Assembly (NCBI GenBank): GCA_033119305.1
Contig: VSWD01000007.1
Coordinates: 57,858,741 to 57,922,740 of the forward strand
Length of the DNA: 64,000 nt
From: Pinctada imbricata
Lineage: Eukaryota
Direction of reading: 5' to 3'
Shown: positions 1 through 50,551 of the stretch, piece after piece
Position numbering within the stretch: position 1 is the first letter of the stretch
Layout: every line of letters starts with the position of its first letter
Position numbers and translations under genes: made by a program
The notes under the pieces: generated by a model
The model's input: the letters and a program-made list of their open reading frames with translations, nothing else
Told to the model about the DNA's origin: nothing
Database searches by the model: none

Positions 1-633
1 TTCACAAAGGACAGTGCAGGTACTGTTTCGCATGTGATTGAGCCTGTAGCTTTCGAATTCAAGCACGAGGGGCATAAAATTCAGTTTTCTTTCAATCAAG
101 AAAGAATTTCAAAGTTATCAGATATTGAGAACTTTATTCGAGACGGTAACTTCGAAAAAGCCTTATCTACTCTTGGTGAACAGAAATCCGCGCTTCAACA
201 AAGAAATAAGATCCTTAAAATTGCTGATAGACATGGTTGGGACACGGTGCACGAGTATTTGGACGACCCGTTGGCTGACAACAACGAGGATGCTGTTAAG
301 CTTCGCTATGCTGTTGGGCGTGCTGCACGCAAACGTTCATTCCGCACTAGACCCTATGATAATAGACGTAGAGGCGGCTCATTTTCCGCAAACGACTTTT
401 TTCGTGGCTTTAGCAACACGTTTAACTCCCAGAATTCCACAAAGCCAATCTATAATCAAGGGAGGCAGTTTGATCCGAGGTTTGGAGTCATGGCAGGATT
501 CCAATTCCCCAGAGACCGTAGTTGCTACTACTGCAGGCAGACAGGCCACCTCATGCGTGACTGCCCATTCACTAAGGCCCAACCCATCCCCGTACTGTCC
601 AGTTCCACCCCAGCTTCCACAAATAAGCAGTAG
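1..633 (+). CDS. Retrotransposon Gag-like protein (open at the window start) with a CCHC zinc knuckle
   Basis: ORF 34..633 reads open back to nt 1 in the same frame. It contains the motif CYYCRQTGHLMRDC (CX2CX4HX4C) and basic stretches. The RT-RNaseH ORF follows immediately. Confidence 0.7.
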   Translation, partial: FTKDSAGTVSHVIEPVAFEFKHEGHKIQFSFNQERISKLSDIENFIRDGNFEKALSTLGEQKSALQQRNKILKIADRHGWDTVHEYLDDPLADNNEDAVKLRYAVGRAARKRSFRTRPYDNRRRGGSFSANDFFRGFSNTFNSQNSTKPIYNQGRQFDPRFGVMAGFQFPRDRSCYYCRQTGHLMRDCPFTKAQPIPVLSSSTPASTNKQ

Positions 634-644
634 TGAAGTTGAGT

Positions 645-2607
645 ATGATTTTGATCATGATGAAGATTCTTTTGATTATGAAAAGTCTCAGAAAAATGTG
701 TCTGTAAAGTCCAAGTTAAGACAAAATGTAGAATTTTGGCAAAATGAATTAAAAGCAAACAATTTCATTTTATCTACCATCAAATTTGGTTATGTGATAC
801 CTTTTGCTCAATTTCCTCCAGCAATTATTTTGAAAAACAATAGATTATCTTTGAATTATCCAGATTTTGTATGTACTGCAATTAATGAACTTCTTTCTGC
901 AGGTTGTATAAACGAAGTTAGAGTTCCGTACGTTGTCAATCCCCTTACAGTGTCTGTAAATAGTTCTGGTAAAAAACGACTTGTTCTCGATTTGAGACAT
1001 GTTAATCGCTTTGTTCAAAAGCAAAAATTAAGTTTGAAGGAATTAAAGAGGCTTTAACATACGCAAAGAAAGGGTTGTTTATGATCAAATTCGATTTAAA
1101 GTCTGGGTATCACCATATAGATATTAATCCAAACAGTCAAAAATACCTTGGCTTTAGCTGGGAATTTGAAGGGAAGTTACGGTATTTTCAGTTTTCAGTC
1201 TTACCTTTTGGATTATCGTCGGCAGGTCATATTTTTACCAAGGTCGTTAGGGTGCTTGTGAAGTATTGGAGGTCAAGGGGAGTACCAATCATTGTTTACT
1301 TAGATGACGGATGGGTTTGCTCAGATTATCAAACTTGCAGAGAATTGTCAGAATTTGTGCAAAAAACCCTTAGTCTTTCTGGTTTTCAAGTAAATTTTGA
1401 GAAATCGTGTTTTGAACCGAAAGATATGATTGTTTGGTTAGGATTTTTATGGAATTTACAGGAAGGTAAAATCGAAGTTCCGCCCGAGAAGTTTCTTAGT
1501 GTACAGTCGGTCCTAAGGGATATATTACACAATATAGGTCATGTGACCGCTAGAAAGGTAGCTTCTTTTGTTGGAAAGATTATTTCGTTGAAACCTGCTT
1601 TGGGTACAGTTTGTCAAATGATGACCAGAAATTTAAGTGTTGCTTTGTGTAATAGAAAAGGTTGGGATCTGAACTTAGATTTACCATCTGTATGTAGACA
1701 GGAGTTAGAATTTTGGCTTAAAAGTCTTCATAGTTTGCCGAACGTGACGTTAACGCCAATAAGCGAAATTCCAGAAAAAATTATGTTTTCTGATGCTAGT
1801 TCATATGCCGCTGCAGGCTTTACTTTGGAGAGAAATACCAAAATTGTACATTATATGTGGAAAGATGATGAAAAGAATAAAAGTTCGACATGGAGGGAAC
1901 TAAAAACAATATGTTTGGTTTTGAAAGGCTTAGGTTCAGATTTGTCGGGAAAACTTGTCAAAATATACACGGACAATCAGAATGTCGTACGCATAGCTTG
2001 TAAAGGGAGTATGAAAATGGAGCTGCATCAGCTAGCTTTAGAAGTGTTGGGTTTCTGTGTGGCACACTCTATTAGATTAGAATTAGCATGGATACCGAGA
2101 GATTTGAATGCATACGCAGACGAATTGAGCAAAATATTTGATTTTGACGATTGGGAGGTCAGAGATGAAATATTTACGTTTTTGAATAAGAAATGGGGTG
2201 AATTTTCGTGTGATATTTTTGCAGCTTGCAAAAATAAGAAAGTCTCAAAATTTTTCTCAAAGTATTACAGTCCTGGTACCTCAGGTGTGGACGCTTTCGC
2301 TCAAAATTGGGATGGAGAAAATTGTTGGTTAGTCCCCCCACCCAACCTGATATGTAGAACGGTTTCTCATTTACGCATTTGCAAAGCATTTGGGGTTTTA
2401 ATTGTCCCTAGGTGGGAATCCGCATTATTTTGGCCAATTATTTGGGAGATAAAATACAAAAATTTCAGATATTTTGTCAGAGATTGGATAGAATTTGAGA
2501 GACCAAAGAATTTTTACAAAGCTGGCTCTGATAAGAACAGTATTTTTGCTTTAGATGTATTCCCAAGCAATGTACTAGTTTTAAAGTTGGATTTTCGTTA
2601 TGATTAG
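645..2607 (+). CDS. Pol: reverse transcriptase + RNase H + DIRS-type C-terminal domain, interrupted by one frameshift near 1015-1025
   Basis: The frame-2 ORF (to 1057) carries the RT N-terminal motifs (PLTVSVNSSGKKRLVLDLRHVNRF). The frame-1 ORF 1075..2607 carries FDLKSGYHHI, the YLDD catalytic box (IIVYLDDGWV) and the RNase H motif TDNQNV. Its tail (FSCDIFAACKN...VDAFAQNWDGENCWLVPPP) is of the kind seen after RNase H in DIRS-type elements. The frames join at an A-run (caaaagcaaaaatt). Confidence 0.8.
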
Positions 2608-2659
2608 TATTAGAGAATGTTAAATGTTGTTGGTATAGATGAATGGGCTTAAATTCAAA

Positions 2660-2800
2660 GGCACCATGTGCATTATGTATTCAATAAAGGCACCATGTGC
2701 AAAATGAAGAATAAGTTTTAATAAAGGCACCATGTGCGTACCGAAGAGATTACATAGAACATTCTAAGAAAAAATCATTGATTTCAAAAGCACCATGTGT
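2660..2800. repeat. Four spaced copies of AAAGGCACCATGTGC between pol and the YR ORF, followed by a poly(A) run at 2866-2894
   Basis: The copies are at about 2662, 2688, 2724 and 2780 (the last reads aaagcaccatgtg). Confidence 0.6.
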
Positions 2801-2865
2801 TTAGCATATTTTTAAAATGCATAAATGTGGCGAGAAGGAATTTGTCGATTTTGTAATGTGAGATA

Positions 2866-2896
<31 letters not shown>

Positions 2897-2970
2897 TTTA
2901 TTTTCATTAATTCGGTTTTATATAACTTTAGGCTTCCAGTCAAGTATGGACGGAAATTCAGCAGTTACGA

Positions 2971-3946
2971 TTGAGAGATGGCAGACTTTCATCCGCAGCA
3001 TCGGATATCCCTCGCATTATCAAAAAAGGCAAGAGCGACAACTCCAACAGAGTGTATGACGCCTATTTCAAAAAGTTTCAGCATTGGTGTAGTTCTTTCA
3101 GCGTTTCATCTATGCCCGCGTCTGTGAGTACTGTGGCCGTATATCTTAGTAGCCGTGTGCAGAAATCAGTGTCAGAATCAGTGTTATCTACCAATTTCTA
3201 TAGTATAAAGTGGCATCATGATATAAGTTTGTGTGCGAACCCATGCGATTCAAAAATTTTACACCTACTTATGGAAGGAGGGAAGAGGATTCTCAGTAAG
3301 CCCATTAATAAAAAGGAGCCGATCACCCCAGAAATATTGAAAAAGATAGTAGACAAATATGGCCAAGATGCAAATAAGAACAATTTATGTTAGAATTTGT
3401 TCTATGTTTTTGTTGGGGTTTTCAGGTTTTTTACGTTTCAGTGAACTTTCAAAACTCAAAGTGAAAAATATTTCTTTTCATGAATTACATATGTCTGTAC
3501 ATATTGAGGGTAGTAAAACTGATGTATATAGGCGTGGAAATAACGTTTTGATTGCTAGAACAAGTAAGGATACTTGTCCTGTATATTGGTTAAAACTTTA
3601 TTTAGATTTAGCTGGAATTTCTAAAAGTCCAGAAGATTTTATTTTTCGTTCTATTCGTTACTTTAAGTCTTCTGACAGTTATAAGCTTTGTAGCTGTAAT
3701 AGGCCCATCTCGTACACGAGAGCTCGTGAGTTATTGCATGACGCGTTAGCGTCTGTTGGTTTAGACACCAAATGTTTTGGTTTACATAGTCTCCGTAGCG
3801 GAGGTGCTACATCCGCCGCTGAAAATAATGTCAGTGATAGGCTTTTGAAATTACATGGTCGCTGGAAATCAGATTTATCAAGAGACAACTATATCAAGGA
3901 TTCCACCTCTAATCAGCTTAGTGTAACTAAAAAGTTGAATATCTAG
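2971..3946 (+). CDS. Tyrosine recombinase (phage-integrase-like) of a DIRS/Ngaro-type element, with a frameshift near 3355-3365
   Basis: Two overlapping ORFs, 2971..3393 and 3359..3946. The second carries YR boxes: LLGFSGFLRFSEL (Arg of box I), HSLRSGGAT (H-x-x-R) and LHGRWKSD...Y (catalytic Tyr region). Confidence 0.75.
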
Positions 3947-14172: not shown

Positions 14173-14397
14173 GTAGGTTACTGTCTGCCCTTGATTTTGA
14201 AAGACTGACATAATAGATAAGGATGGTACATCATGTAGAATTATTTTGATGCAATAATTGTAAACTCTAGTGGAAGATTGTACATAATGATATTTGAAGG
14301 AATTATGCCACAATTGTCCTACATTTAAAACAGGTTCTCACCTAGGCAGTAAATATCTAATATTTCCATATTGTATGTATAAATGCCTACATCACAG

Positions 14398-14760
14398 TGG
14401 GTAATCTCGCAACGCAGAACGATTGGGTTTTCTATAATTTCGTGTGATATAGATTATATATCACAAAAAGAAGATTGTGATGCAGTGTAAGGATGCCATA
14501 GCTATGAGTTTTATCCAAAATAAGAGAATAATATATTTTCATCAAGCTGAACAAAGATCAGCGTGATTCATGTAGACGAAAGTGAAAGTAGAACGCTGAT
14601 CGTTTTTATGCGTTATTAAAAGCTAATATTATCCTTATTTTGAATACAACTCATAGCTTAGACATTCTTACACTGCATCACATTCCCCTTCTAGTTATAA
14701 ATGATCTATATTGCACAAAAATTTAGATAAACCGATTGTTCTGCGTTGCAAGATTACCCA
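14398..14760. mobile_element. Foldback/MITE-like element in TBC1D15 intron 13
   Basis: Terminal inverted repeats gggtaatctcgcaacgcagaacgattggg (14398) and cccaatcg..gttctgcgttgcaagattaccc (14731). Internal inverted segments too (gtgtaaggatgccatagctatgag vs ctcatagcttagacattcttacac). Confidence 0.6.
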
Positions 14761-15018
14761 CCGTGTACATGAAGGTACAGAAAGAAATTTTATCCATCAC
14801 TGTCTACCAATGCCTAGCACAAATTCTAATGCCAAATTTTTAAATTCAAGAAAGCTTGAACAACTTTGTTAGTGTAAAAGTCTTCTTGAGTTAGTTATGT
14901 TTGTAATTAAATTGTATTGAATGTTATAATTTTGTCCTGTATTGATTTATAGACGAAAACTTGTGTACAAACAAAAGACTTGTAGATAACTGATGCAAAA
15001 ATATAAAGCTTGCAGATG

Positions 15019-34426: not shown

Positions 34427-35268
34427 CAGCGGCGGATTTAGAGGGGGGCCCAGGGGGCCCGCCCCCCCCCCTTTTTCACCCAAAGTTATTGATTCAGAAT
34501 ACTCTTTTTATGCTTAATCTCTTTACTTGTGGGGAAATTTTCGGCTCGCTTCGCTCGCCACACTTAATTTTTCATTAGCCGTCTATTTTCGTCTTCACTT
34601 TGTCTTGAACTTTCTTTGTCATCGTGTTTGAACGGATTCATATGTCATAAACATATACAAAAATCAAAATTAAATTAACACTTGAATAATTACCAAATGC
34701 TTCATTTTCATGGGCCGATCTAACCAGTTTAGACAGGTGGATAGTGGGGTTGCAATGCCCTAATCTTCCCAACCTTCCCCAATTGGTCAAACAAAAAAAG
34801 AGGATGGAAAATGAGAGAGATATTGTAATCTTAATATGACAATATGTAACCATCTATTCCAAACATTTCCCGGCTCGCTCCGCTCGCCATTTTAGAATAA
34901 TATATATACATGTATGTATATATACATGTATGGATGACTGAACCAAAACAAAAAAAAAAAAAGAAAACTTCAAATCTTAAAATTTTCCGGCTCGCTACGC
35001 TCGCCAGTATACCTATAAACTTAAGTAAACGTATCAAGAAACTCTATCTTCTAAATGCAACATGCAGTTGGAATGACCCCCCCCCCCCCCAACTTATTAA
35101 TTAAAATCACCAGTCTTGAGCTTCAGGTTTTGGAGGTCCTTTTTTTTTTTTCGTCTTCGACTTTTTTTTTTTTTTTTTTTTTTGCTTGTCAGTTTTTCTT
35201 TGAACAATTTTCTTCGAGCTGAAACTTTGGCCCCCCCCCCCTTTCTGAAATCCTAGATCCGCCACTGG
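34427..35268. mobile_element. MITE-like element A with TIR ~CAGYGRCGGATYYAG, ~250 bp upstream of the SND1 ATG
   Basis: cagcggcggatttagagggggg at 34427 and ctagatccgccactgg at 35253 (inverted). Poly-C/G tracts lie next to both termini. No coding capacity. Confidence 0.5.
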
Positions 35269-35596
35269 TTCAGACTAATAATTATATGACACGATTCCTA
35301 AAGAGTAATTGCTACATGCATAATCCGAAGTATGGATGAGATGTAATGTTTTCTCATCTGACAATTTTGGTTAGTTTATTTTACTTAAAAAAGAAACATA
35401 TTTATTGCTCATACATGTAATGGGTATACTGATAAGTTTTTGGTCAGTTGCATCATATATGATTGTCTCCCGATGAAGAAGCCGCTGGAGCTCCGAAAAA
35501 TTGAGTTCTTTTATTTCAGTGTCGCGCACCATTTTTGTGCTGTTTATATCTTATTTTCTGCGAGTGACATGCACTAGCCCTTGGGCCTATGCGACA

Positions 35597-35752
35597 CTTT
35601 CTCAGTGACGGATCCAGCGCTCCCTTTAAGCGATTTTTACAGAAAATTGGCCAAAATATAAGGGTTTTTTGGAAAATTTGGGACAGTGCCGCGGGATGGG
35701 GGGCGGACGCCCCCTCCGCACCCCTTAATCCGCCACTGAGAAAGAATTCGTT
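35597..35752. mobile_element. MITE-like element B (~155 bp), same TIR family as element A
   Basis: ctttctcagtgacggatccagcg (35594) and taatccgccactgagaaag (35738) are inverted complements. Confidence 0.55.
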
Positions 35753-36167
35753 GTTTTATTTTTATTCCTTGTGCCTTTTATAACTTTAGCCGGTGTATAT
35801 ATAATCATGTCCTTGGCTTATCTTCTTTCATAGAGACGGTCTCTCACTGTAAAATAGTTGCACAAACAATGTTATGCAGGAGAGATCGCGAAAGAGAGAG
35901 AGAGAGGGATTTCTCATTCAGGTTTATAACAGTTCATTTTTATATGATTTAAAGAAAAAAGTTTCAGTACGAGAAATTGGAAGAACATAAGAAATTGAAA
36001 GAACATAGGGAATTGAAAGAACATAAGAAATTGAGAGAAAAAGAGAGAGATTCCTGGTTTCAGGTGTGTGATATTTCGACTTATTATGTATGCTTTTAAA
36101 TGTATCAGAGAGAGGGAAAGAACAACATAGAGAGAGCTAGTGATTTCCATGTTGTAAAACGATGTCT

Positions 36168-36203
<36 letters not shown>

Positions 36204-36212
36204 ATCGATCCC
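36168..36212. repeat. (GA)n microsatellite
   Basis: gagagagag run. Confidence 0.9.
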
Positions 36213-36744
36213 CATGGATATCAGATCGCCCCTATCAGAAAAAAATGGAAATATCTAGACAGTTTTTCCGAATTTAAGATTTGAAGAAGTTATAAAGCTT
36301 TACTACATGGGTTCTCCGAGAAGTACGTTGAAAACTCGGCTGATTTTGCTCTTAAATTCTTGAAGACGGTTCTCGTAAACCCGATTCCAGACTATATCAT
36401 ACTAAATGTTTTAAATTAATTTTCAAAGAAAATAGTAGTAGTATTTTTTTTCCACTTTACAAATCTGCTGCTGTATAACAAAGAAGAAAATACTTATCTA
36501 ATTAGGTAGAAAAGCACGTTCTAATGCGAAATTAATTAGATACGAAATCATGCATTTTTTTTAAATAATCCAACCGATTTTATTGTATATATGAATTTAT
36601 AATAGCTTGTGACATCTGATAGTAATTTGTTTAAACCAAAATAATCAAACTGAAAGAAAGTCAAAGAAGTCCCCGCGATATATGTAACATCAATACAGCC
36701 AACTGTCAGTGCTTAGAAAGAAAGAAAAGGAATGAAAGAAAAAA

Positions 36745-36751
36745 GAAAGAA

Positions 36752-36827
<76 letters not shown>

Positions 36828-36830
36828 AAT
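36745..36830. repeat. (GAAA)n microsatellite
   Basis: aagaaagaaagaa... run. Confidence 0.95.
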
Positions 36831-37215
36831 TGTCAATATTTAGAGTTAATAAGGATGCATATTAGAGTTAATTGAGACAAAAGGGAAAAGACATAATCAA
36901 AAGAGGTGATAATCATCTACCAGACAATTACCCAAGCCACTTACGTAAGTTAAAAGAAGAAGCCGCCCAAGCTCCATCCTGGTCATTTGTCCCTAATTAT
37001 CGAGGTGCGAATGTATTGTAATTACCCGAAAATGACTGTGGCTTAGTACTTTATATGCCATGTCCGTCAATCTGGTCCTCAGTGCTTCATTGACCTTCAG
37101 AGAATAACGATGTCTACAACTTGTAACACCGATACATCTGTACCCGTCTTCCAACCTCTGTTCGTGGACACCAACATTGAGTATACCATGGACCCCGCCC
37201 ACTTCCCCGGGATAG

Positions 37216-37373
37216 ACGATTCCACTGAGAGCTGCCGAGCCACAGTTACTGATCCACTCAGAATCAACGTGTAGCTGCCACCTTGTTGTGCAGTCCCTCT
37301 ACAGCAGCTTTTCCGACACCAGCTCTGTTTCCAACCAAAGCGTGGCAGAACCTGAACTCTACGTTCTTATAGG
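37216..37373 (+). CDS. Internal exon of an unidentified gene
   Basis: Acceptor ...ccccgggatag|, then an open frame TIPLRAAEPQLLIHSESTCSCHLVVQSLYSSFSDTSSVSNQSVAEPELYVLI, donor gtaaat. It is phase-compatible with the exon at 38250. Confidence 0.45.
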
Positions 37374-37376
37374 TAA

Positions 37377-37385
37377 ATAGAACAT

Positions 37386-37472
<87 letters not shown>
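37377..37472. repeat. (ATTT)n microsatellite
   Basis: tttatttattt... with ~23 units. It lies inside the intron of the 37216/38250 gene fragment. Confidence 0.95.
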
Positions 37473-38249
37473 TCTATAAAGCGAAGGTATAACATTTTTT
37501 TATTTGGTGAACGGTTCAACCTATGAAATATTAAAGCATATGATTGAAAGATTTTTCTCCATACGATTTATCATTTATTATTTCATCAAATATTAATATT
37601 TATGACTATGTGTAGCATGTACTCATATCGTTATTCAAAGCAGGATCTTCATGCTATCATTCGCTTTCTTTTCGGGGGGGGGGGTCAGAAACAAATACAA
37701 ATTAAATCTTTTTTATGCTTACGACGCATGCAAAATTTGAAACAACTGATTTTTAAGAACAAAGAAAAAGTATCAAATTATACGTCCCTGCTTGAAACGC
37801 AGTCCATTAAATACAAAATGAAGTAAAAATCGTCTCTGATAAAATTCTTCTATGATTCTTTCGAATTCTTACGTTAATCACGAAAGATGTTTCTATGTCG
37901 TAGAATACTATTGCAAAACCGTACGTACTCTCGACACTTATCATAGTCTTATGGAAATATGCTACATCGATGTGTCATTCATAAACTCCTTTTACAAAAT
38001 ATATATTTATATTTAAAAATAAATACAAATATAAGACTTTTGTTGAAAATATATATTAGGGTATTCTGATCTTCAACGCAAAAATTTAAAGAATCGAAAG
38101 AGTACGTCGATCCTTACTGGTACCTACATTACTTTTCAAACTATCAAAGTAGATCAAATGATTACGAATTACTCTTTTCTTTTTATACTTATTGGATTTT
38201 CTTGATTTTTTGTTTTTATGAATCTAATTATGTAAAATTTTCATTTCAG

Positions 38250-38560
38250 ATTCATTTGAGGACCCCGAGGCCGACATATTGGAAGCCGTACTACACTCCT
38301 CCCTCCACGACACGTCATTCACCTCCGCTGCCATCTCACTCAGCCAGTCTTGTACGTCTGACACTTCATTCGCCGACACTTCGTCCCTGGACCAGACCAG
38401 CGAATACGACATCTTCCGTCGACTCTGCGAACAACTGGACATCGAGGTAGAGAAGTCAACGAAACGCAAACGCCGACGCAGTGACAGTGATGACGTATGT
38501 AATGACGCCAAACGCCAACGTAGTGCCATCACTGACGACCTGTGCAGCGATGAACATTGA
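38250..38560 (+). CDS. Terminal exon of the same unidentified gene (acidic Ser/Thr-rich, KRKRRR basic cluster, stop TGA)
   Basis: Acceptor ttttcatttcag. Encodes DSFEDPEADILEAVLHSSLHDTSFTSAAISLSQSCTSDTSFADTSSLDQTSEYDIFRRLCEQLDIEVEKSTKRKRRRSDSDDVCNDAKRQRSAITDDLCSDEH*. Confidence 0.5.
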
Positions 38561-39058
38561 TGATCTCCTACTCAGTAGAGGATTATAGACTAGTGATTGT
38601 GATGATGACATCAACTTGAATATAATGTGTCAAAAGACTATCACACTTTGTATCAAATAAGATGAACATTATGAAATCAGTATTTTCATGTATATGTAAT
38701 TTTAGTGCTATGACAGAAGTAAAATCATAAGGAATGAATTATAGATATTTTTTCTCTTTGTCTTAAAAAGGGTTTTTACACATTATGTTGCTCCGAGCGA
38801 GCAATTCTGATTACTTCAAAGTCAATCAAAAGTTCAAGGAAACATTTCTTGTCAAACTTTGGTTACAACAGCAAGGTTATACATTTGAAAGTCATACTTC
38901 CCTAGCCATGCATTCAAAATGTATGTCCAAGGTTTCTTAAATGCAGCTGAAAGGTACTTTCAGGTATTCATAGAAAGATTAAGTATAAAGGAATGACAGA
39001 TTTACATGAATTAGTTATGGTCAAAGGTTGGACAAAAACGGTGCCCGTGGTCGGTTTC

Positions 39059-39066
39059 ACAAAAAA

Positions 39067-39097
<31 letters not shown>

Positions 39098-39150
39098 GAA
39101 CAAAAAAAAAAAAAAACAAACAAACAAAACACACACACAAAAACAAAACA
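39059..39150. repeat. Poly(A)/(CAAAA)n low-complexity tract
   Basis: aaaaaaaaaaacaaaacaaaac... Confidence 0.9.
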
Positions 39151-39554
39151 AAACCACGAAAATTTAAGAAATTTCGCAACTTTCGTCTTTAGATGATTTA
39201 AAAAGTTCTGTTTAGAATGCATTATATTTTCGTTTACTTTATCATGTAACTGAATAGGAATTCAGAAACGAAGCTCCGTAATTTTTTTTTTTTAAATTTA
39301 TTAATGTAGTTTTTCAATGGAATAAAGCGATCAAAATTTCAGAAAATTTTCGTTAAAGTTTTTTTAAACCAGGTCAAACATACAATCAGGCCTGATACAA
39401 TGTCACAGTACATCCATGCATGAAGTTCCTCTTGTGGAAAAAGATCTTGTAACAACTCTATGTATAGCCAATCAGAGACAAACAGACTGAAAAAGTTCAT
39501 CAACATACACACACCAAATGTCCAATTTTAAGGCGATTCAAATCTGAGGATTGT

Positions 39555-40232
39555 TAGGTCCGTGTACTAAACCACAATTCAATTTTCCATTTTGGAAATG
39601 TTAATGAAAAATGGAAAATTGAATCAATATTTCATTTTTCGTTTTCAATTTAGTAAATGAAAAATGGAAAATTGAATCAATTTTCCATTTTTCATTTTAA
39701 AATTTCAAATTGAAAAACGAAAATGGAAAATGGACTCAAATACGCTGTATTAAACCACAATTCAATTTTCCATTGCAAAAGTAAAAAACGAAAATGGAAA
39801 ATTGAACCCATTTTCAATTTTCATTTTGAAAATGAAAAATGAAAATTTGATTCAATTTTTCATTTTTCATTTCAAAAATGAAAATTGAAAATTGAAAATG
39901 GGTTCAATTTTCAATTTTCCTTTTTAATATTTTATTTTCCTAATGAAAAATAGAAAATGGACTGTAATAGGCTGTACTAAACCACAATTCAATTTTCCTT
40001 TTCAAAATCCGTTATGGAAAATGAAAAATTGAGTCAATTTTCAATTTTTAAACTCCGCGCGCTAATGCAAAAATGAAAAATTGAATCCATTTTCAATTTT
40101 TCATTTTTCATTTTCGATTTAACGACACACGACCTGTACACCCCTATCACTATAATCCAGTAGTCCAGCAATTAGCCAATCAGAGCGCTCGTTTCAAACG
40201 TAAACAAAAGTCTCTATCTCTCTCGCTTCGCC
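39555..40232. repeat. Left TIR arm, itself built of ~200-bp subrepeats rich in gaaaatggaaaattgaatcaattttcatttt
   Basis: actaaaccacaattcaattttcc recurs at 39567, 39747 and 39975. Confidence 0.75.
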
Positions 40233-42894
40233 AATAAACAGTTGTAGTTTAATGAAATATTGTTATCTTAGACACATAAATTTTACAGCTCTCTCGTATT
40301 TTTCTAACAAAGCTATATGACAAGACAATGCGATAAGCATATAAAGGATCATGGACTTTAAAGCTTCCTTGTTATCGCCTTATTTCGAGTGAATCTAACA
40401 GAAATATGTTTTTTTTTTGTGGGGGGGGGGGGGGGGGGGGGGGGGCTCCCCGGGAATTAAAAAAATATAGACTAAAATTGTGCAATCTGAAGCATATTTT
40501 CTCCTTATTATCTCGAACATCAGGACCATTTTAGGAATACCAGTTCCAATTAGTAGGGAGAGCCTGGGTTTATCTCGATCTTTTTTTTAAGATTACTTGT
40601 ACTTAAATACTTATTGTTTATTTGTCCCCACAGTTACAGTGTTACATGGACATAAAATTAGAATATTAGTATGATATGGAGTAAAATTTGTTTCCTTCAT
40701 TTTTGTTTGTTAGTTTGTTTTTACATAATTTCCAAGTCCAATGTTTAATAAATGTACATTTCTATGTTTTAAACAAAATTTGAAGACTAAAAAATCCTTC
40801 TATAAGCATAAAAGCGTGAAGGTTCCCGTACCATTTATATGTTTTGTAAATCATTTTACAGGTTTATATGATTGTTAATTTTCCGATAAAATGTAGAAAT
40901 TGAATTGAAAGATATGATAACTAGTTGGAATAAGGACCAATTTTCGGGCATAAAATGAACAGAAACCCCCTGCGCGATGTACATTACAAAACTTTGCAAT
41001 AAATATTGTTTGTACGAACAAATTTAGAACCTAAAAAAATTGGATTTACAACCTCAATAAATTCTCAAATAAGGTATCGATATATGATTGAATACATATA
41101 AAAAATAATTTTTTTCTAATTGGTTAATTCTGCTGAACATTTAGCAATTTCTACTGATGCGTTTGCAGTTTTTTTTTTCGATTGCTGATGTTACCAAAAT
41201 AAAAAGAAAACCTAGGGCGGTTCCCATAGGGGGTGGTACCTATGGGGGGGGTTTCCATTTGCAACCCCCCCCCCCCCCCACCACCACCACCACCACCACT
41301 CACCCCCTAAATCCGTCTATGTACTGTTGAAACTTAAGTGGTTGGATAGATGTTGATTTCTAGCATCTATAGATAGTAGATATCTAATTTTCATTCCGAT
41401 ATTTTGATAACTTCATGGGAAAATAATGATAAAGTTCTCTATCTTCTTACGCCTGCTGAATAGCGCATGCCTCTTATGTCACATGTATTTCAAACATTAA
41501 TATTATTTTCATAGTACAACAATGTAATTATCACCTCTACATGGTATCCACATGATAGATTTCTTGAATGATATTTAGTTTCGTAACAAGTACTATAAGA
41601 GACGTACATATACCATGATATACGTGCCTGGAACTATATTGTATTTGGTTTCTTATATAAATCTATTCTATACATGTATAAATGTATTTTAATCAGTACT
41701 AATCAATATTCTTGCACATGTTGCAGATCAAAATATATGGTAAAAAAAAAGGGGGGGGGGGGGGGGGAGTTGAGCACTTTGCCGGATTTTCACTAAAATA
41801 TTAGTTTACCGTCTATTATACTGATTGATCAGTGTCGGAGCGTAGCTTCGATGTGGACGATTAGCAGGGACCGGCGGGCCTAAATCCTCAAATGGGGGGG
41901 GGGGGGGGGGTTGCATAATTATACACTTTTTGTGGAATGACTCGCAAAGCCCGAGGGGTCTATGTGGGTAGGGTATATAGATGGAAGATGATTTCCCTCC
42001 CAATGGCAAGGAGTTAGGAGTTCGGGGGCCTCCCCGAGAGGATTTTGAAAAAAAAGTCAAGCAAATCTATACCCTCTGTCCCATGAATGCGTCGTGTCAT
42101 GGTTTGGCAAACCTACAAACGGGTAACTTTGGCGAAAAAAAAAATGCAAGTAACATTCTTCAGGGAAAAAATATTTAAACCACAAAAAAACTTTGAAGTC
42201 CGATTAAATTTAAAAATCAAAATATGGGGAATGTAAAAAGATTTTTAAAAATGCCTCGGATTACACCATTTTGTCATAAAAATCCGAAAATTTGGCGTAC
42301 GATTTTAGATTTTTTTTTTTTTTTGGGGGGGGTATATTTGTTCATTTTTTCCAAGATATACAATGATTATTGAATCGATTTATTTTGATTTTGACCATGC
42401 ATAGCACCATTACCTTTAAAATGGGATCGAGAATCGATCATGCTCGCTTAATAGTTCAAAGTTCAAGTTCAAATAATTTATTATAGTGTCACATGTTATA
42501 AAAACATTGTTATGATTACAAATATAAAATTCAAATAAAATATTTATAACATCCAGCCTATAAGACTTATGAGACACTTGTCATTATATACAATAAAATC
42601 ATAAATCACAATTCAAAAAGGTCATTAAAATTTGTGTTAAGTGATATACAAAAATCATTCTGAACACTCTTAAAATTTATCATGTAATACTGTATTTTTC
42701 CTATTTTGACCAGTGACTTTCAAAATCTATAGAGAATTATTTTAAATGTATAACATAAATGAGCAAATGACCTTGACTTTCTGTTGTTTTATGATAAGTT
42801 TGCATTACGCCACACACAATAATTTACATTTCTTTCAAATACATGTATTCAAAAATACAAATGACAACTTATTATCTAAGCAGTATATTTAGCA

Positions 42895-44186
42895 TTAACC
42901 CAAAAATATCTTTCTACGATTAAACATAAGATATAGTGTCTTTGCAACATCATGTTGTAAACTGATATGATTCATCAAAAAACATAATTTATCTTTATCT
43001 GATAAGTGTTCAAAACTTTCATATATATTAATAGCTTTAGAATACAATTCAAATCTAATATCTGAATAAAGATCACATTGAAGCAGAAAGTGTTTTTCAT
43101 CCTCAACTTCATTTTTATCACAAAATTTACATAATCTTTGATCTAACGGGATAATAGGCTTGACATATCTACATGTTTCAATTGCTAATGGAAGTGAGCC
43201 ACTTCTAAAGTTTGCATAAATTTTTCTATATAAACGACTATTTACCAGTTTTACATAAGGGCTTGTACTCAAGAAAGATTTGTATTCTCTAAATGTTCTT
43301 AATTTGTTTCCATTTTCTAAATTCTTATCATTATACAATTGATTATACCACTCTAAACAGTCCTTTTCATAAATAACATCATTAATTAAACCCATTTTCA
43401 ATTTTGTACTCCAGTTTCTGTGAATGATATCCTGGATATTCAAGTCTGCAGCCATTTTTAATACAGTGGAGTCCCATGATCTCTGGAGATTCAATGACGC
43501 TGCATGAATTTTAGTTACATATCTATTATTGCTGAAAGATTGAATTCTCAAGAGAAGCCTGAAAGTTTCCAAAATTTGCTTCGAATGAGTACTAATAAAT
43601 CCCATATCACCTCTAGATGCAGTATTTGATGCATTTTTGCGTAACCCTAAAAAATATCTACACGCCTTATTTTGGACAACACTTATTTCTCTCCATTTAT
43701 TCAAACCCCAGATCAACAAAGGTTCTGTAAAGCTTAGTGAAAACATCATAGGTCATACCACCACAGTATAAGAACTTAGTGTATAATGCTGATAGAGCCC
43801 TACTTGCAGATTTTCTGACTTCTTTCACTGTAAATCTATAATCCAAAAATTCATTTAATGACACACCAAGATATCTATAGCTTGAATCGTAGTCAATATC
43901 CAGATCACCACATTTAAAGGAAAATTTGGATCTTGTTACACGAGATCCCCTAAAATGCAGAATTTTAGTTTTCTCTTTATTTATTGTAAGGCGCCATTTC
44001 TTACACCACATAGCTACAGTATCAAGCATAATTTGCAATTTATTTTCATCTGGTGCAATAAGTGCAATATCATCAGCATATAAAAGTACTGATAAATTAA
44101 GTTCATCATCAATGTCTATTCCAGATAATGTCAGTAACGCTGAGCGTGCAAACAACGTCTACCCCTGCGTTAATCCAATTATCTAA
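42895..44186 (-). mobile_element. 5'-truncated non-LTR (LINE) retrotransposon fragment: RT domain plus the C-terminal part of ORF2
   Basis: ORF 43697..44155 carries the RT motifs LLYADDIALIAPDE (YADD box) and KTKIL. ORF 42895..43749 continues as an ORF2 C-terminal region. It lies inside the IR-bounded unit. Confidence 0.7.
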
Positions 44187-44639
44187 TTAGCAGTGACTAT
44201 GTGTATTATTAAATTTAACTTTTGACTGTCAAACGGAAACAAGTAACTATTCAATTCAATGTCTTTTAAAACGCCATTATCTAAAGCGTGTCCACGTTGC
44301 AGACCCGTTGGACTTCACAGTAAAATCAACAGAAAGTCTGAAATATGGACTAGTTTTTTTTTACTTTCACGGTGTCTTCACTAACATATTTTATGAAGAA
44401 GATATATTTTGTTCTACAGTACTATGGAGTAAACGTGATTACGGGTCGCTCCGCTGATTTTGAGATTTTAAAAAGTTTTAAAATGGTTTCGTAGAGTCTC
44501 AGCACAATACTTTACAATATGTTTGTAAATAAATTGTATGGTGGAGTTGGATGACTATAAGGGGAGGTTGGAGGCAATTAAAACACACACCCATATTTCA
44601 TAATTTTTATTTTGAAAACATATAAACAGGCTGTCTACT

Positions 44640-44760
44640 CTACCTTGATGAAAAAGTAGGAAAAAAGTAGGAGTAGTCAATGAAAAAAAGTAGGAGAAAA
44701 ATAGGAAAAAGTAGGAATTAATAGGGGAAAAGTAGGAAATTTTCCATCACTTTTAGCGAC
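44640..44760. repeat. (GAAAAAGTAGGA)n-type minisatellite, left flank of the direct-repeat pair
   Basis: aaaagtaggagaaaaataggaaaaagtaggaatt... Confidence 0.8.
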
Positions 44761-44920
44761 AATTTTCAGTAAGTATGACACACAAATCACAGTAAGCAAT
44801 GATTGTAGACTGGTAATGTTCATCTTTGAGGAAATCACAGAGAGAAATAAGGAAAGATTGATTTTCATGTAAAATATACAGAATGGGCGAGCGAAGCGAG
44901 CCCGAAATTTTTTATAAGGT

Positions 44921-45597
44921 TGCACTCCACTGTATTGGTCATTGAAAATTGAGCGTTTTGAATGAAAGGCATGCAATAGTTGACGTTATATTAATAATTT
45001 TATATTGCTCATACATTATAAAGCTACATATCAATAAAAAGTACTCTTATTACTGATTACTTCTATTATTCTTGATTTCATCTGAACAAATCCTGTCAGT
45101 CAGACATGCTGCTCAAAGTTATAGCAGTACATTAGAAGATGACATGGAAATGGGGCATGACCCCTCAAAGTGACTCAAATTTGACATCCTTCTCAAATGA
45201 TTTTCTTAATAAACTGTATGTCTATTTGTTGTGTATTTCTTATTCTATAATATGTGCAATTTATTTGAATTTTCACCTGATGCAATTCGAGAAATATGAC
45301 GTCAAAGTTTTCTTACCTAAATACAGCATTCATTTCTTTGCCCAAGGCTAGTCACATGACCTCTTACTTTCACATCCGGTCATGTTATACATATGAGGTA
45401 TACAATGGAAATAATGTGCTTTTCTCAAGACAACAAGCTAGTTCTTTCTTCCAAATATCAAAAATCATAGTTATTTCAATAATAAAGCTCACATAATGAA
45501 GCTGGACCCCAGCTGTCCCCTATTTAAAAAATCATCCCTAGCCAAATTCCAAATGCGACACTGCGGATACTATCTAGTGTAACCTATAGGAGTACAT
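44921..45597. repeat. Direct repeat copy 1 (~675 bp)
   Basis: Near-identical to 46351-47012, which is why ORFs 45139/45296 and 46569/46726 are identical. Confidence 0.85.
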
Positions 45598-46350
45598 TTT
45601 TCTTTATGCGAGAAATTTTTTTTGTCGATATGTGTTTTTAAGGTCTTTCGCATCTTGCGATACCAGATATTTTGTGTTACGCACTATACTTTTGTCGCGA
45701 CACACCGTCAAAGGTCCCATGATACCGTCAGGCCTTAACCCCAATGTTACATTACATGGCCATAATAGGAAATACATATATGATCAATAGGAGCTATTTA
45801 TGATGCTTAAGTACTATAATGGTACATTAAAAGATAGAATAAAGGCTAAATGTCATTCTTAAAAGAATGTTGCAATGGAAACGACAAACTTTTTTGTCGT
45901 AACGACATATATTTGTCGCGTCGAAGCTAATTATATACCATAACGCTTTACCGCGAACAACAGAAATGCCCATGTAAGCTATAATATTTTGAACAGATTT
46001 TGGTTGCTATGGTAACCACATTGTGGTAAATTTAAGTCATTTGAGATACTTTAACATTTTCAGAATATTTTGATACCTCTCATCATAATGTAAACCTCTT
46101 ATCTATATGGCAAAGGTGCATCACATCCACAATGGTGTCACAGACTTAACAGCATTTTTCCTGCATAAATGAGCTAATACTGGAGCAACATCAATTTTCA
46201 TGACAATCAAAAAATTTTTATTTTTGAATTAAACATGTCTATATTTGATTTTTAAGAAACAACAGAGTCAATACCTTTTTATGATATAAATGGTAACCAT
46301 AGCAACCAAATATGAAAATTTGAATTGAGGAGCATATGTGCGTATAAGGT

Positions 46351-47012
46351 TGCACTCCACTGTATTGGTCATTGAAAATTGAGCGTTTTGAATGAAAGGC
46401 ATGCAATAGTTGACGTTATATTAATAATTTTATATTGCTCATACATTATAAAGCTACATATCAATAAAAAGTACTCTTATTACTGATTACTTCTATTATT
46501 CTTGATTTCATCTGAACAAATCCTGTCAGTCAGACATGCTGCTCAAAGTTATAGCAGTACATTAGAAGATGACATGGAAATGGGGCATGACCCCTCAAAG
46601 TGACTCAAATTTGACATCCTTCTCAAATGATTTTCTTAATAAACTGTATGTCTATTTGTTGTGTATTTCTTATTCTATAATATGTGCAATTTATTTGAAT
46701 TTTCACCTGATGCAATTCGAGAAATATGACGTCAAAGTTTTCTTACCTAAATACAGCATTCATTTCTTTGCCCAAGGCTAGTCACATGACCTCTTACTTT
46801 CACATCCGGTCATGTTATACATATGAGGTATACAATGGAAATAATGTGCTTTTCTCAAGACAACAAGCTAGTTCTTTCTTCCAAATATCAAAAATCATAG
46901 TTATTTCAATAATAAAGCTCACATAATGAAGCTGGACCCCAGCTGTCCCCTATTTAAAAAATCATCCCTAGCCAAATTCCAAATGCGACACTGCGGATAC
47001 TATCTAGTGTAA
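46351..47012. repeat. Direct repeat copy 2 (~660 bp)
   Basis: Both copies start aggttgcactccactgtattggtc and end ctgcggatactatctagtgtaacc. Confidence 0.85.
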
Positions 47013-47069
47013 CCAAAACTTTGAATCAGATGTTGATGACAAGTGAAGCAAGTAATTTTTTTACTTTTG

Positions 47070-47190
47070 AGATGAAAAAGTAGGAATAGTAGGAGGTTTT
47101 GAAGAAAAAGTAGGAAAAAATAGGATCAAAATAAAAAAGTAGGAAAAGTAGGAAATAGTAGGAAAAAGTAGGAACAGTAGAAAGCCTGTT
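47070..47190. repeat. (GAAAAAGTAGGA)n-type minisatellite, right flank (same orientation)
   Basis: gaaaaagtaggaatagtaggagg...aaaagtaggaaaagtaggaaatagtaggaaaaagtaggaacagtag. Confidence 0.8.
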
Positions 47191-47262
47191 ATAATAAAAT
47201 GTTATTTCCACAACTACAACTGTTTATTCGGTCTTTTCGAAATACAGAGTTACTTCCCATTT

Positions 47263-47410
47263 GTGCAGGTATCTGACGTCAACGCATTGTGACGTCATCA
47301 AATTCTATGAAAACCAGCATGAAATTCAGGGAAACAGGGTTACATGTATGACGTTTTCAAAGGAATTTAATGACGTCACAATGCTTTTACGTCAGATACC
47401 TGCACAAATC
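47263..47410. repeat. 36-bp near-perfect inverted repeat with a ~68-bp loop, containing four TGACGTCA (CRE-like) palindromes
   Basis: caggtatctgacgtcaacgcattgtgacgtcat ... atgacgtcacaatgcttttacgtcagatacctg. Confidence 0.8.
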
Positions 47411-47446
47411 GAACGTAGGACTGTAAAATCGAAAAGACGGAATTTG

Positions 47447-48130
47447 CGAAGCGAGAGAAAGGGCAAGCTGCCGATAGAGACTTTTGTTTACGTTTGAAAC
47501 GAGCGCTCTGATTGGCTAATCGCTGGACCTCTGGATTATAGAAATAGGGGTGTGCAGGTCGTGTGTCATTAAAACGAGAATGAAAAATGAAAAATTGAAA
47601 ATGGATTCAATTTTTCATTTTTCATTTTTGCATTAGCGCGCGGAGCTTGTGTAAAATGGAAAATTGACTCAATTTTTCATTTTCCATAACGGATTTTGAA
47701 AAGGAAAATTGAATTGTGGTTTAGCACAGCCTATTATTGTCCATTTTCTATTTTTCATTAGGAAAATAAAATATTAAAAAGGAAAATTGAAAATTGAACC
47801 CATTTTCAATTTTCCATTTTCATTTTTAAAATGAAAAATGAAAAATTGAATCAATTTTTCATTTTTCATTTTCAAAATGAAAATTGGTTCAATTTTCCAT
47901 TTTCGTTTTTTACTTTTGCAATGGAAAATTGAATTGTGGTTTAATACAGCGTATTTGAGTCCATTTTCCATTTTCGTTTTTCGATTTGAAATTTTAAAAT
48001 GAAAAATGGAAAATTGATTCAATTTTCCATTTTCTAAATTGAAAACGAAAAATGAAAAATTGATTCAATTTTCCATTTTTCATTAACATTTCCAAAATGG
48101 AAAATTGAATTGTGGTTTAGTACACGGACC
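47447..48130. repeat. Right TIR arm (reverse complement of the left arm)
   Basis: Direct comparison of revcomp(48040-48130) with 39555-39640. The inner end has a 13-bp insertion relative to the left arm. Confidence 0.75.
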
Positions 48131-48930
48131 TTGTTACCCCCCTGCTTGTTTCTAAAATCCTCAAATCTGAGGATTGTTACCCCCCCCCCCCCCTTGGGTG
48201 TTTGTCATAAAAATGTTGGTACCCATGAAAGCCGTTATCACGGGAATGCACATGTTTTAAACGATAAAAAGTCCTATTTATATCACTCACAAATCAAGAG
48301 TAATGCCCAACGTCATTCCTTTACAAAAGAAAGTCAATCACTCAGTTCTAAGTCATAAGGTCAAATATTTTGGTACCAGTTTGAAAGTCTTGTTGCAATG
48401 AATATACTTAGGAAATATGAAAGCCTTTCTAAATTTATGCTGAACGGTTAAAGTTTTTGAAAAGCAACTAAAGACACATTCTAAGGTCAAGATCATAAGG
48501 TAAAAAAATTTAGTACCAACAAAAGTCTTGTCATTGCGAATAAACATGTGAAATATGGAACTTTCACTCACATTTCAAAAGTTATACCCCTGTTAAAGTT
48601 TGCTAGAGTCAAAAGGTCAAAGTCACCCAAATTGAATGATGAAAAGGCATACACATGGGAAATATGAAAGTCCTTTCAATCACAATTCAAAATATAATAT
48701 GTCCAAGGTATAAATTTTTATATTTACATTACTAGTAAATTCCCTATGTTGAACGCCCATTATGAAACTAGAATTATATTCCAATAACTTGGGTTGCTAT
48801 CGTGACGCCACGTGCAAGTTTTGCATGTATGGAGAATTTACCAAAGCGATGATATATTTGACGCTGTTACAGGCAAAATGTGCGATGTTTATGCAAATAA
48901 AAATGACTGATAATTAGGATAAATGTAAAT

Positions 48931-49078
48931 ATAAGTAATGACTGTCTTACTTTTGGTGTTCATGGGTGTATAATTCTGGTTGGACACGTGCAAATTTTCC
49001 GAGAATCGCTTCGCGATTCACGGAATTTGCACGTGACCAACCAGAATTATACACCCATGAACACCAAAAGTAAGACAG
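48931..49078. repeat. Near-perfect ~148-bp palindrome (hairpin / foldback element)
   Basis: taatgactgtcttacttttggtgttcatgggtgtataattctggttggacacgtgcaaatt is mirrored as its reverse complement with one mismatch. The centre ttccgagaatcgcttcgcgattcacggaa is itself palindromic. Confidence 0.85.
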
Positions 49079-50551
49079 TCATTTCTTAAGTAATGGTATG
49101 ATGTACCCACATATTTCAATGTCCATCAGCTCACTTCCATGAAAATGGGGATAAGAATGTTGGTATTCATGGAAAGATTTTGCAACAAATTGAAAGATGA
49201 AAGCCCAGTCACTGTTGAAGAGCGATATCCAAGGTAACAGCTACGAAGCCCATGGACCTCATTACTCATATTGGAGAAAAGACATTAAATGAGAACAGCA
49301 GACTGATAGTTATTATAGATAATCATCATGTACAAAATGACCTTTAATTTCGTCACATGAATATCAGTTATGTCAATGTTTCTCATCATTTGATGCATTG
49401 ATGAACATTGATAAACCTTTGTTTCATGAGTTACAATAAACTCAATTATGAAAGTGTTCAGATATACAGTTTCAGAGATATGGACTGATGTCAGACAGAC
49501 ATGAGGGCAAAAATAAAAGGTTATCATCTCTTGAGGCCAAATCAGATACATGTACAATGTACATACATTGTAACATATGATTGATTGAATTACAGTTATC
49601 TTTATTTCTTTGAGCATCCTAACAAACTGCACTGGTTTTATATAATGAATTCATTATTTCAGACCCTCGAAATTACATGCATACAATCATTCATAGGCAA
49701 TCGTTAAGCATTGTCAAGGTCAAATAAAAGATGTATGATTGCAATTCTACACAGGAATTTTAATTGACTTAATTCAATACACATTTGTTAAGGTTTACAT
49801 ACAGCATAACAATTAAATCTTTCAACAGTATTACACCTAATGATAAAATAGTTGGATGTTAGCGTTGCATTTGTCACTTATGTAGTTCTTACAACAATAA
49901 AGACTTGTCAGAAGACAACATTGCTCGCCGTGTAGGTTTTTGATAGTAAAATGGCATTTTTTAAGAACAGGTTAATTTTTTTTTAAAGAAGGTCAAACTC
50001 AGTGGACATGGTCCAAAATGAAAGGTCTGGTCAAGAGGTATCCACGTGTGAAATATCAAAGTCCTATTATAAGTTATAGCACATGAGATATAGCCCAGTT
50101 TATTTTTTTTTTAAAGTAGGTCAAACTCCAAGGTCAAGGTGTCTAGGTCAAAAGTCATGGTCCCAAATGAAAAGGTCTGGTCATTGGGTATCAACATATG
50201 AAATATGAAATATCAAAACCATTAATAATAACCCCTTATAGTTCATGAAATATAGCCTTGGTTAAATTTTGTCCACGCAACAGACGCCTCTGATCAGGCT
50301 TTGAAAATAGCTCCATGATAAATCATTTTTTTCCCAAATAAGCAGGCCACCCTTTTTTGTAATTTAATTTTAGCATTACCTTCTTGCATAGGAAAGATTC
50401 TATTAACAGTTGGACAAATTTCACATGGTATTAATTTTAATCAAACTGCATGACTATAATGATGTTTTTTTGCAGAGAATTCATTGCTGTCACTTCAAAT
50501 GACATATTGCACATAATAAGCATGTCAATGGCAGATTGTTTCCTTAATGTT

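Follow-up and report, generated by a model that had tools for sequence, protein, structure and literature searches.

The question raised by positions 39557-48130 of a 64-kb stretch of Pinctada imbricata DNA (contig VSWD01000007.1; the whole stretch of 64,000 nucleotides is referred to here as the window) is whether the 8.6-kb unit found there, lying between two 703-bp inverted arms, is a mobile element and, if so, of what kind. The original prediction, made from the letters alone, had offered a deleted derivative of a large DNA transposon with the signature of Polinton/Maverick, IS3EU or Dada, a composite carrier of other repeats, or an unrelated inverted segmental duplication. We conclude, with a probability of about 0.7, that the unit was inserted long ago and is a non-autonomous, fold-back-like DNA transposon of class II (cut-and-paste type). 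None of the superfamilies tested fits it, and none is assignable without a transposase. The unit is an ordinary kind of genomic parasite that has become a landing pad for younger elements, in a window that is AT-rich (GC content about 0.30-0.38) and contains many eukaryotic mobile elements.

Inverted arms and boundaries of the unit

The two arms were recognized as near-identical reverse complements by both blastn and MAFFT, in line with the prediction, which had correctly described two long arms and had placed their extent slightly short, at ~680 bp instead of ~703 bp. In the blastn alignment, 39556-40218 matches 48131-47473 with 93.6% identity over 673 columns, gaps counted, and a gapped local alignment extends the collinear blocks to 39556-40235 and 48131-47442. 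The MAFFT global alignment of the complete arms contains 688 aligned positions, 664 of which are identical (96.5%; Kimura two-parameter (K2P) distance 0.036); 24 substitutions and five indels, each 3-14 bp long, separate the two arms. The right arm appears to end at 47442 because a 213-bp element, absent from the left arm, has been inserted there (47229-47441), and homology to 40235-40259 picks up again beyond it, at 47228-~47203.

On both outer sides the homology between the arms ceases at the same base, exactly at the termini. The terminal 32-mer, GGTCCGTGTACTAAACCACAATTCAATTTTCC, is the same at both ends of the unit and has no further occurrence in the window, where no additional copy of the arms was found either.

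Target site and evidence for a single insertion

As predicted, both termini are flanked by TTGTTA, which was read directly at 39551-39556 and 48131-48136; the rate at which a random pair of junctions in this window shares a 6-mer is 0.00055. A longer direct match around the unit, described as 18 bp starting at 39533, is indeed present, with a length of 19 bp (TCAAATCTGAGGATTGTTA) and a start a few bases away from that position (39538-39556; 48161-48179). The sequence TTGTTACCCCCC, which starts at the right junction, is found again at 48174-48185. When the 19-nt left flank, with its single TTGTTA, is joined to the CCCCCC of the right flank, the result is TCAAATCTGAGGATTGTTACCCCCC, identical at 25 of 25 positions to 48161-48185. 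An uninterrupted copy of the target thus lies only 30 bp downstream of the unit and provides an in-window analogue of the empty site; the sequence lacking the 8.6-kb insert, as predicted for such a site, would read GAGGATTGTTACCCCCC.

The left and right flanks were formerly contiguous, and the whole block from 39557 to 48130 is therefore an insert. Because the joined flanks match the uninterrupted 25-mer, this DNA entered as a single unit. In the simplest history that the repeats allow, the target region would have been duplicated in tandem over 43 bp before the insertion, the second copy remaining as the uninterrupted reference seen today. This duplication is seen at 48143-48185, the repeat being a perfect 25-mer and the spacer 18 bp long. 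The same region also holds an imperfect palindrome, AAAATCCTCAAATCTGAGGATT, and the second target copy precedes a longer poly-C run.

The length of the flanking duplication can be read in two ways, because TTGTTA starts with T and finishes with A: either 6 bp (TTGTTA), with termini GG..CC, or 4 bp (TGTT), with termini AGG..CCT. The uninterrupted paralogue fits both readings alike. By a rough estimate, the 6-bp reading requires one base-pair coincidence and the 4-bp reading two, so that 6 bp is favoured only about threefold.

Internal architecture of the arms

Subrepeats of ~200 bp had been predicted in the arms, and each arm does consist largely of three such units, of 183, 227 and ~160 bp. 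Every unit has a 21-mer head, TAAACCACAATTCAATTTTCC, unchanged in 6/6 units, in an alignment of the six units that has a mean column identity of 65%. Because the head is invariant while the remainder of the units has diverged, the pattern suggests constraint on a putative protein-binding site kept by selection. A 31-bp palindrome of the form AAAATGGAAAATTGA-N-TCAATTTTCCATTTT is present in two copies per unit, and all 10 occurrences of the half-site TTCAATTTTC in the window fall inside the arms. The inner ~130 bp of the arm, beyond the three units, is unique sequence containing GCCAATCAGAGCG (a CCAAT box), which points inward in both arms; a promoter role for this part would be speculation.

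The prediction that the unit lacks a transposase held at the sensitivity of Pfam. A six-frame scan of the interior outside a nested long interspersed nuclear element (LINE), covering 40236-42900 and 44150-46345 with stops masked, returned no Pfam family at E<=1, and the LINE is the sole protein signal in the unit.

In structure the unit is closest to fold-back-type non-autonomous transposons (Drosophila FB, Galileo and Tetris), with which it shares long TIRs (terminal inverted repeats) made of tandem subrepeats, the mostly non-coding nature of the copies and a variable interior. With three units per arm and no open reading frame (ORF) with a domain, the unit falls into the fold-back-like class, which is a structural class and not a superfamily. 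FB is grouped with MuDR and makes 9-bp duplications, whereas Galileo belongs to the P superfamily and makes 7-bp duplications; the 6- or 4-bp duplication of the unit differs from both, and the likeness is a structural one.

Under the fold-back-like reading, a transposase provided in trans by an unseen autonomous relative would bind repeated sites in both arms. The candidate sites in each arm are the three copies of the 21-mer head and about six of the 31-bp palindromes. This transposase would pair the GG..CC ends, and the element would integrate via a staggered cut. The interior was invaded later: the LINE entered it, as did a miniature inverted-repeat transposable element (MITE)-like element that in turn received a non-autonomous KolobokP element, and a hairpin element entered the right arm. 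The 3.6% divergence of the arms, their indels and the insertion that has broken one of them suggest that this copy is now immobile.

Comparison with known transposon groups

The proposed Polinton/Maverick, IS3EU or Dada signature did not survive closer comparison, as each group fails a defining test of termini, genes or target. A deleted, non-autonomous Polinton/Maverick, with the arms as TIRs (replication origins and integrase sites) left by a self-synthesizing element that has lost its genes, is an improbable source of the unit. The two share TIRs of several hundred base pairs and, under one valid reading of the flanks here, a 6-bp duplication (PMC8097293, PMC3014272); the 703-bp arms lie within the range of 46-1447 bp of intact vertebrate Mavericks (PMC8097293), Mavericks are found in all mollusc genomes analysed (PMC10294476), and the iterated palindromes could be origin-like. 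However, six-frame translation of the interior outside the LINE shows no trace of genes for pPolB, integrase, ATPase, protease or capsid, and the unit is, at 8.6 kb, half the usual size and composed mostly of foreign nested elements, which make up about 4.5 kb of it. The ends also disagree. Vertebrate Mavericks have documented AG-type end motifs, (AGT)2 or (AG)3 (PMC8097293), whereas the terminus of the unit is GGTCCG under the 6-bp reading and AGGTCC under the 4-bp reading. With AG..CT ends, only 4 bp are left for the duplication; the two hallmarks, an AG-type motif and a 6-bp duplication, therefore exclude each other and are not found together here.

Elements of the IS3EU/GingerRoot group always have TA..TA termini with a 6-bp duplication (PMC10045372). 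This assignment was rejected for the unit, the termini of which are GG..CC, and shifting the frame to TA destroys the duplication. Dada elements make 6-7-bp duplications, have no TIRs and insert in U6, U1 or tRNA genes (PMC3706591); the unit has 703-bp TIRs and no detected small RNA gene target, with no Rfam match at gathering score and no tRNA by ARAGORN across 38500-49200, and Dada was rejected as well. Kolobok elements have 5'-RR..YY-3' termini and a TTAA-specific 4-bp duplication, and are abundant in bivalves (PMC9587614). The unit resembles them in its RR..YY termini (GG..CC or AG..CT) and in its possible 4-bp duplication, but that duplication would be TGTT and not TTAA, and no match was found between the unit and the KolobokP sequences in the supplement of the KolobokP paper. 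The ends of hAT elements carry many subterminal transposase-binding repeats, as in Ac/Ds, and the GGTCC terminus of the unit does not resemble the motif in which hAT elements usually end. Compatibility is limited to the length of the duplication, hAT duplications being 5, 6 or 8 bp (PMC7165386), and hAT stays a candidate.

Further identities were rejected for the arms. Inverted terminal repeats of DIRS type do not agree with the presence of a flanking duplication; moreover, the truncated LINE, which lacks a tyrosine-recombinase gene, supplies the only reverse transcriptase (RT) remnant in the unit, and the arms are not similar to a DIRS-like element at 34-3946. For short interspersed nuclear elements (SINEs), solo long terminal repeats (LTRs) or Helentron-type satellite carriers, neither the ends nor the flanks fit.

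Alternative origins of the unit

Several observations weigh against a fold-back-like transposon inserted in one step. A third TTGTTA (even ATTGTTA), at 40260-40265, starts exactly where the left arm ends on its inner side (boundary 40259/40260), and ATGTTA adjoins the inner end of the right arm at ~47201-47206. These (T/A)TGTTA hexamers have the same orientation as the outer duplication, and a simple single-insertion model must put both down to chance. The inner TTGTTA could instead point to an assembly in two steps, or show where the 6.9-kb interior entered the loop of what had been a pure fold-back. In such a history, either each arm was a separate ~703-bp unit with TTGTTA-like flanks of its own, or a pure fold-back, its two arms joined by an 8-nt loop (TATTGTTA), took up the interior at a later time with duplication of TTGTTA. 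The hexamer is rare, with 26 occurrences in 64 kb, yet four of these (40260, 40369, 40707 and 40872) crowd into the 620 bp that adjoin the left arm on its inner side, and by a rough estimate the probability that one falls at the inner junction by chance is a few percent. A single arm has no inverted repeat of its own and so would not transpose alone, and the interior has no ends of its own. The left arm stands beside the left half of the target only and the right arm beside the right half only; because each arm has just one target half, two independent insertions cannot explain the 25-mer match. Assembly in two steps is therefore, on balance, rather unlikely.

The single copy is a further weakness. 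No second member of the family was seen in the window, and the collections scanned for further copies do not cover Pinctada genomic DNA. The invariant 21-mer had one exact match among JGI metagenome contigs (L001:8057-8077), a chance match within coding-like DNA that is unrelated, and none among viral contigs. A protein search with an 82-amino-acid ORF of the right arm found no match in a collection apparently without Pinctada shotgun data. Searches of the full-text literature with four sequences from the arms gave no match, and k-mer comparison of the arm termini and motifs with the supplementary sequences of the KolobokP paper and of a bivalve mobilome paper gave none. The mobility of the family, the length of its duplication and its transposase are therefore putative.

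One visible copy in 64 kb, with no external copies retrieved, is also what would be left by an assembly artefact or by a segmental duplication that arose locally in inverted orientation, with no mobile element involved. This origin is very improbable: the sequences just outside the arms are direct and not inverted repeats, the homology stops at the same base on both sides, and an uninterrupted target copy exists. The suggestion of an unrelated inverted segmental duplication is contradicted by these direct flanks together with the target copy 30 bp downstream. Nor are the arms a mis-assembly of one sequence, because their 24 substitutions, five indels and private 213-bp insert in one arm distinguish them. 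It is a long shot, finally, that the unit represents an undescribed lineage of eukaryotic DNA transposons. Such a lineage would combine GG..CC ends with a duplication of 6 bp and with TIRs of ~700 bp that are dense in iterated palindromic sites, and its autonomous partner might be an unusual transposase or else a self-replicating element resembling a virus. Were such a lineage real, TTGTTA at all four arm junctions could reflect a genuine target or assembly rule instead of chance.

Interior of the unit and nested elements

The interior items listed in the original prediction, namely a truncated LINE, GTAGGA arrays, poly-G/C tracts and a hairpin with TGACGTCA motifs, are all present, as are the direct repeats given as 675 bp, which measure 672 bp and are 100% identical. 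The unit does act as a carrier of other repeats, as had been proposed; several of these items are separate nested transposons and not oddities of the unit itself. At least four other mobile elements have colonized it (Table 1).

Table 1. Positions of the unit, its target site and the elements nested in it (window coordinates)
Feature	Position	Strand	Basis or detail
Left target flank, TCAAATCTGAGGATTGTTA; last 6 bases, TTGTTA, are the left duplication copy	39538..39556	+	Same 19-mer, unchanged, at 48161-48179
Left arm (TIR), 703 bp, terminus GGTCCGTGTACTAAACC	39557..40259	+	Read directly and alignment
Left-arm units	39557-39739, 39740-39966, 39967-40128	+	Invariant head TAAACCACAATTCAATTTTCC and two 31-bp palindromes each
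Non-coding interior with four poly-G/C tracts (40421, 41265, 41751, 41894), TTGTTA at start	40260..42454	.	No Pfam match
5'-truncated LINE (non-LTR retrotransposon) fragment, boundaries approximate	42455..44190	-	ORFs and RVT_1 match
MITE-like element, ~465 bp without its own insert, includes both GTAGGA minisatellites	44626..47189	+	TIR ACAGGCTGTCTACT / ACAGGCTTTCTACT (13/14)
Non-autonomous KolobokP-type element, 2097 bp, inside the MITE-like element	44918..47014	+	Comparison with Kojima & Bao 2022
Right arm, inner end, homologous to left-arm 40235-40259	47203..47228	-	Alignment
Palindromic MITE-like insert in the right arm, 213 bp, three TGACGTCA motifs	47229..47441	.	Homologous left-arm point uninterrupted
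Right arm (TIR), main part, three-unit architecture as in left arm	47442..48130	-	Alignment
Right duplication copy TTGTTA, then CCCCCC	48131..48136	+	Read directly
Uninterrupted target paralogue, TCAAATCTGAGGATTGTTACCCCCC	48161..48185	+	Exact 25/25 identity

In the LINE fragment the RT is represented by its C-terminal part and is accompanied by a Cys-rich C-terminal ORF, and the 3' tail is (TTGAAC)n-like. Its minus-strand ORF at 43700-44155 matches positions 144-204 of the 205-position RVT_1 profile with an E value of 7.7e-13, and a 284-amino-acid ORF downstream of the RT ORF has a weak match to zf-RVT. The 10-mer TTTAAAATGG, at 42415-42424 and 44477-44486, occurs on either side of the LINE and could be its target-site duplication, although it is not significant alone.

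The MITE-like element has 14-bp TIRs, is flanked by a TATAA duplication (44621-44625 and 47190-47194) and has been split by the KolobokP-type insertion. The 213-bp insert of the right arm, which is the 'CRE-rich hairpin' of the earlier description, is flanked by an ATT duplication (47226-47228 and 47442-47444). It folds into a single end-to-end hairpin (-64.3 kcal/mol, z -13.7), and its matches in Rfam resemble miRNA precursors, all below threshold.

The KolobokP-type element is bounded by two direct repeats of 667 bp, at 44918-45584 and 46348-47014, which enclose an internal part of 763 bp (45585-46347) with TATAGG at its start and GTATAA at its end. Each repeat has imperfect inverted ends of its own, GGTTGCACT...AGTGTAACC, of the GG..CC type; its first and last 18 nt match at 13/18 positions, and at 8/9 over the first 9. 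According to Kojima & Bao 2022, KolobokP elements are bounded by long terminal direct repeats, either about 450 or about 660 bp in length, which carry 11-18-bp TIRs of their own with RR..YY ends. The non-autonomous forms measure 1.7-3.3 kb, one family having a TATA-bounded internal part, and KolobokP is particularly abundant in bivalves including Pinctada. The nested element shares with these the ~660-bp repeat class, the TIRs of the repeats, the GG..CC ends, the TATA..TATAA bounds of the internal part, the overall length and the bivalve host. Its terminal motif, GGTTGCAC...GTGTAACC, resembles those of KolobokP-1_CVi, -3_MyCo and -6_MeMe: the termini are GGTTGCACTCC...AGTGTAACC here as compared, in the supplementary sequences, with ggttgcaccact in KolobokP-1_CVi, ggttgcacttgtg...caagtgcaacc in KolobokP-3_MyCo and ggttacact in KolobokP-6_MeMe. 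The flanking duplication, of 3-5 bp in KolobokP, is not clean here, the flanks being ..TATAA| on the left and |AAAAC on the right (TAA versus AAA). Because only a 450-bp-repeat KolobokP family is listed for Pinctada in that work, the nested element is probably an unreported non-autonomous family of this genus. The 100% identity of its direct repeats indicates a recent arrival.

Poly-G/C tracts of at least 10 nt cluster in this region of the window and are found at 34462, 35077, 35231, 37674, 40421, 41265, 41751, 41894, 48180 and 62024. They were rejected as a feature of the unit, as they also lie outside it (34462-37674 and 62024). Several adjoin a motif of the type GGCGGAT(C/T)TAGG, and a dispersed repeat family is suggested.

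Neighbouring features in the window

The DIRS-like retroelement at 34-3946 contains gag-like, RT/RNase H and tyrosine-recombinase-like ORFs. Its multicopy RT/RNase H ORF (1075-2607, 510 amino acids) is 99% identical to one database entry, the hypothetical protein FSP39_009337 [Pinctada imbricata], and the second-best match among 5.8 billion proteins is 63% identical, which places the window in the Akoya pearl oyster or in a species very close to it. Located 0.8 kb to the right of the unit, a near-perfect hairpin (48932-49088) has 65-nt arms that are 97% complementary and a 27-nt loop, and has sub-threshold miRNA-like matches in Rfam on both strands. An inverted repeat at 14393-14765, with 132-nt arms (81%) lying 109 nt apart, is probably another MITE-like element.

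Significance of the locus

The unit illustrates that an apparent 6-bp duplication combined with a long TIR is insufficient for calling a Polinton. The locus also dates a stack of four nested insertions, among them a very young non-autonomous KolobokP element of the ~660-bp class. In molluscs, about 10% of the annotated repeats still count as 'unknown' (PMC10294476). The locus offers a cleanly bounded seed from which a family can be defined in Pinctada, as its termini are exact, its arms hold a candidate binding motif and the window itself provides an empty-site control.

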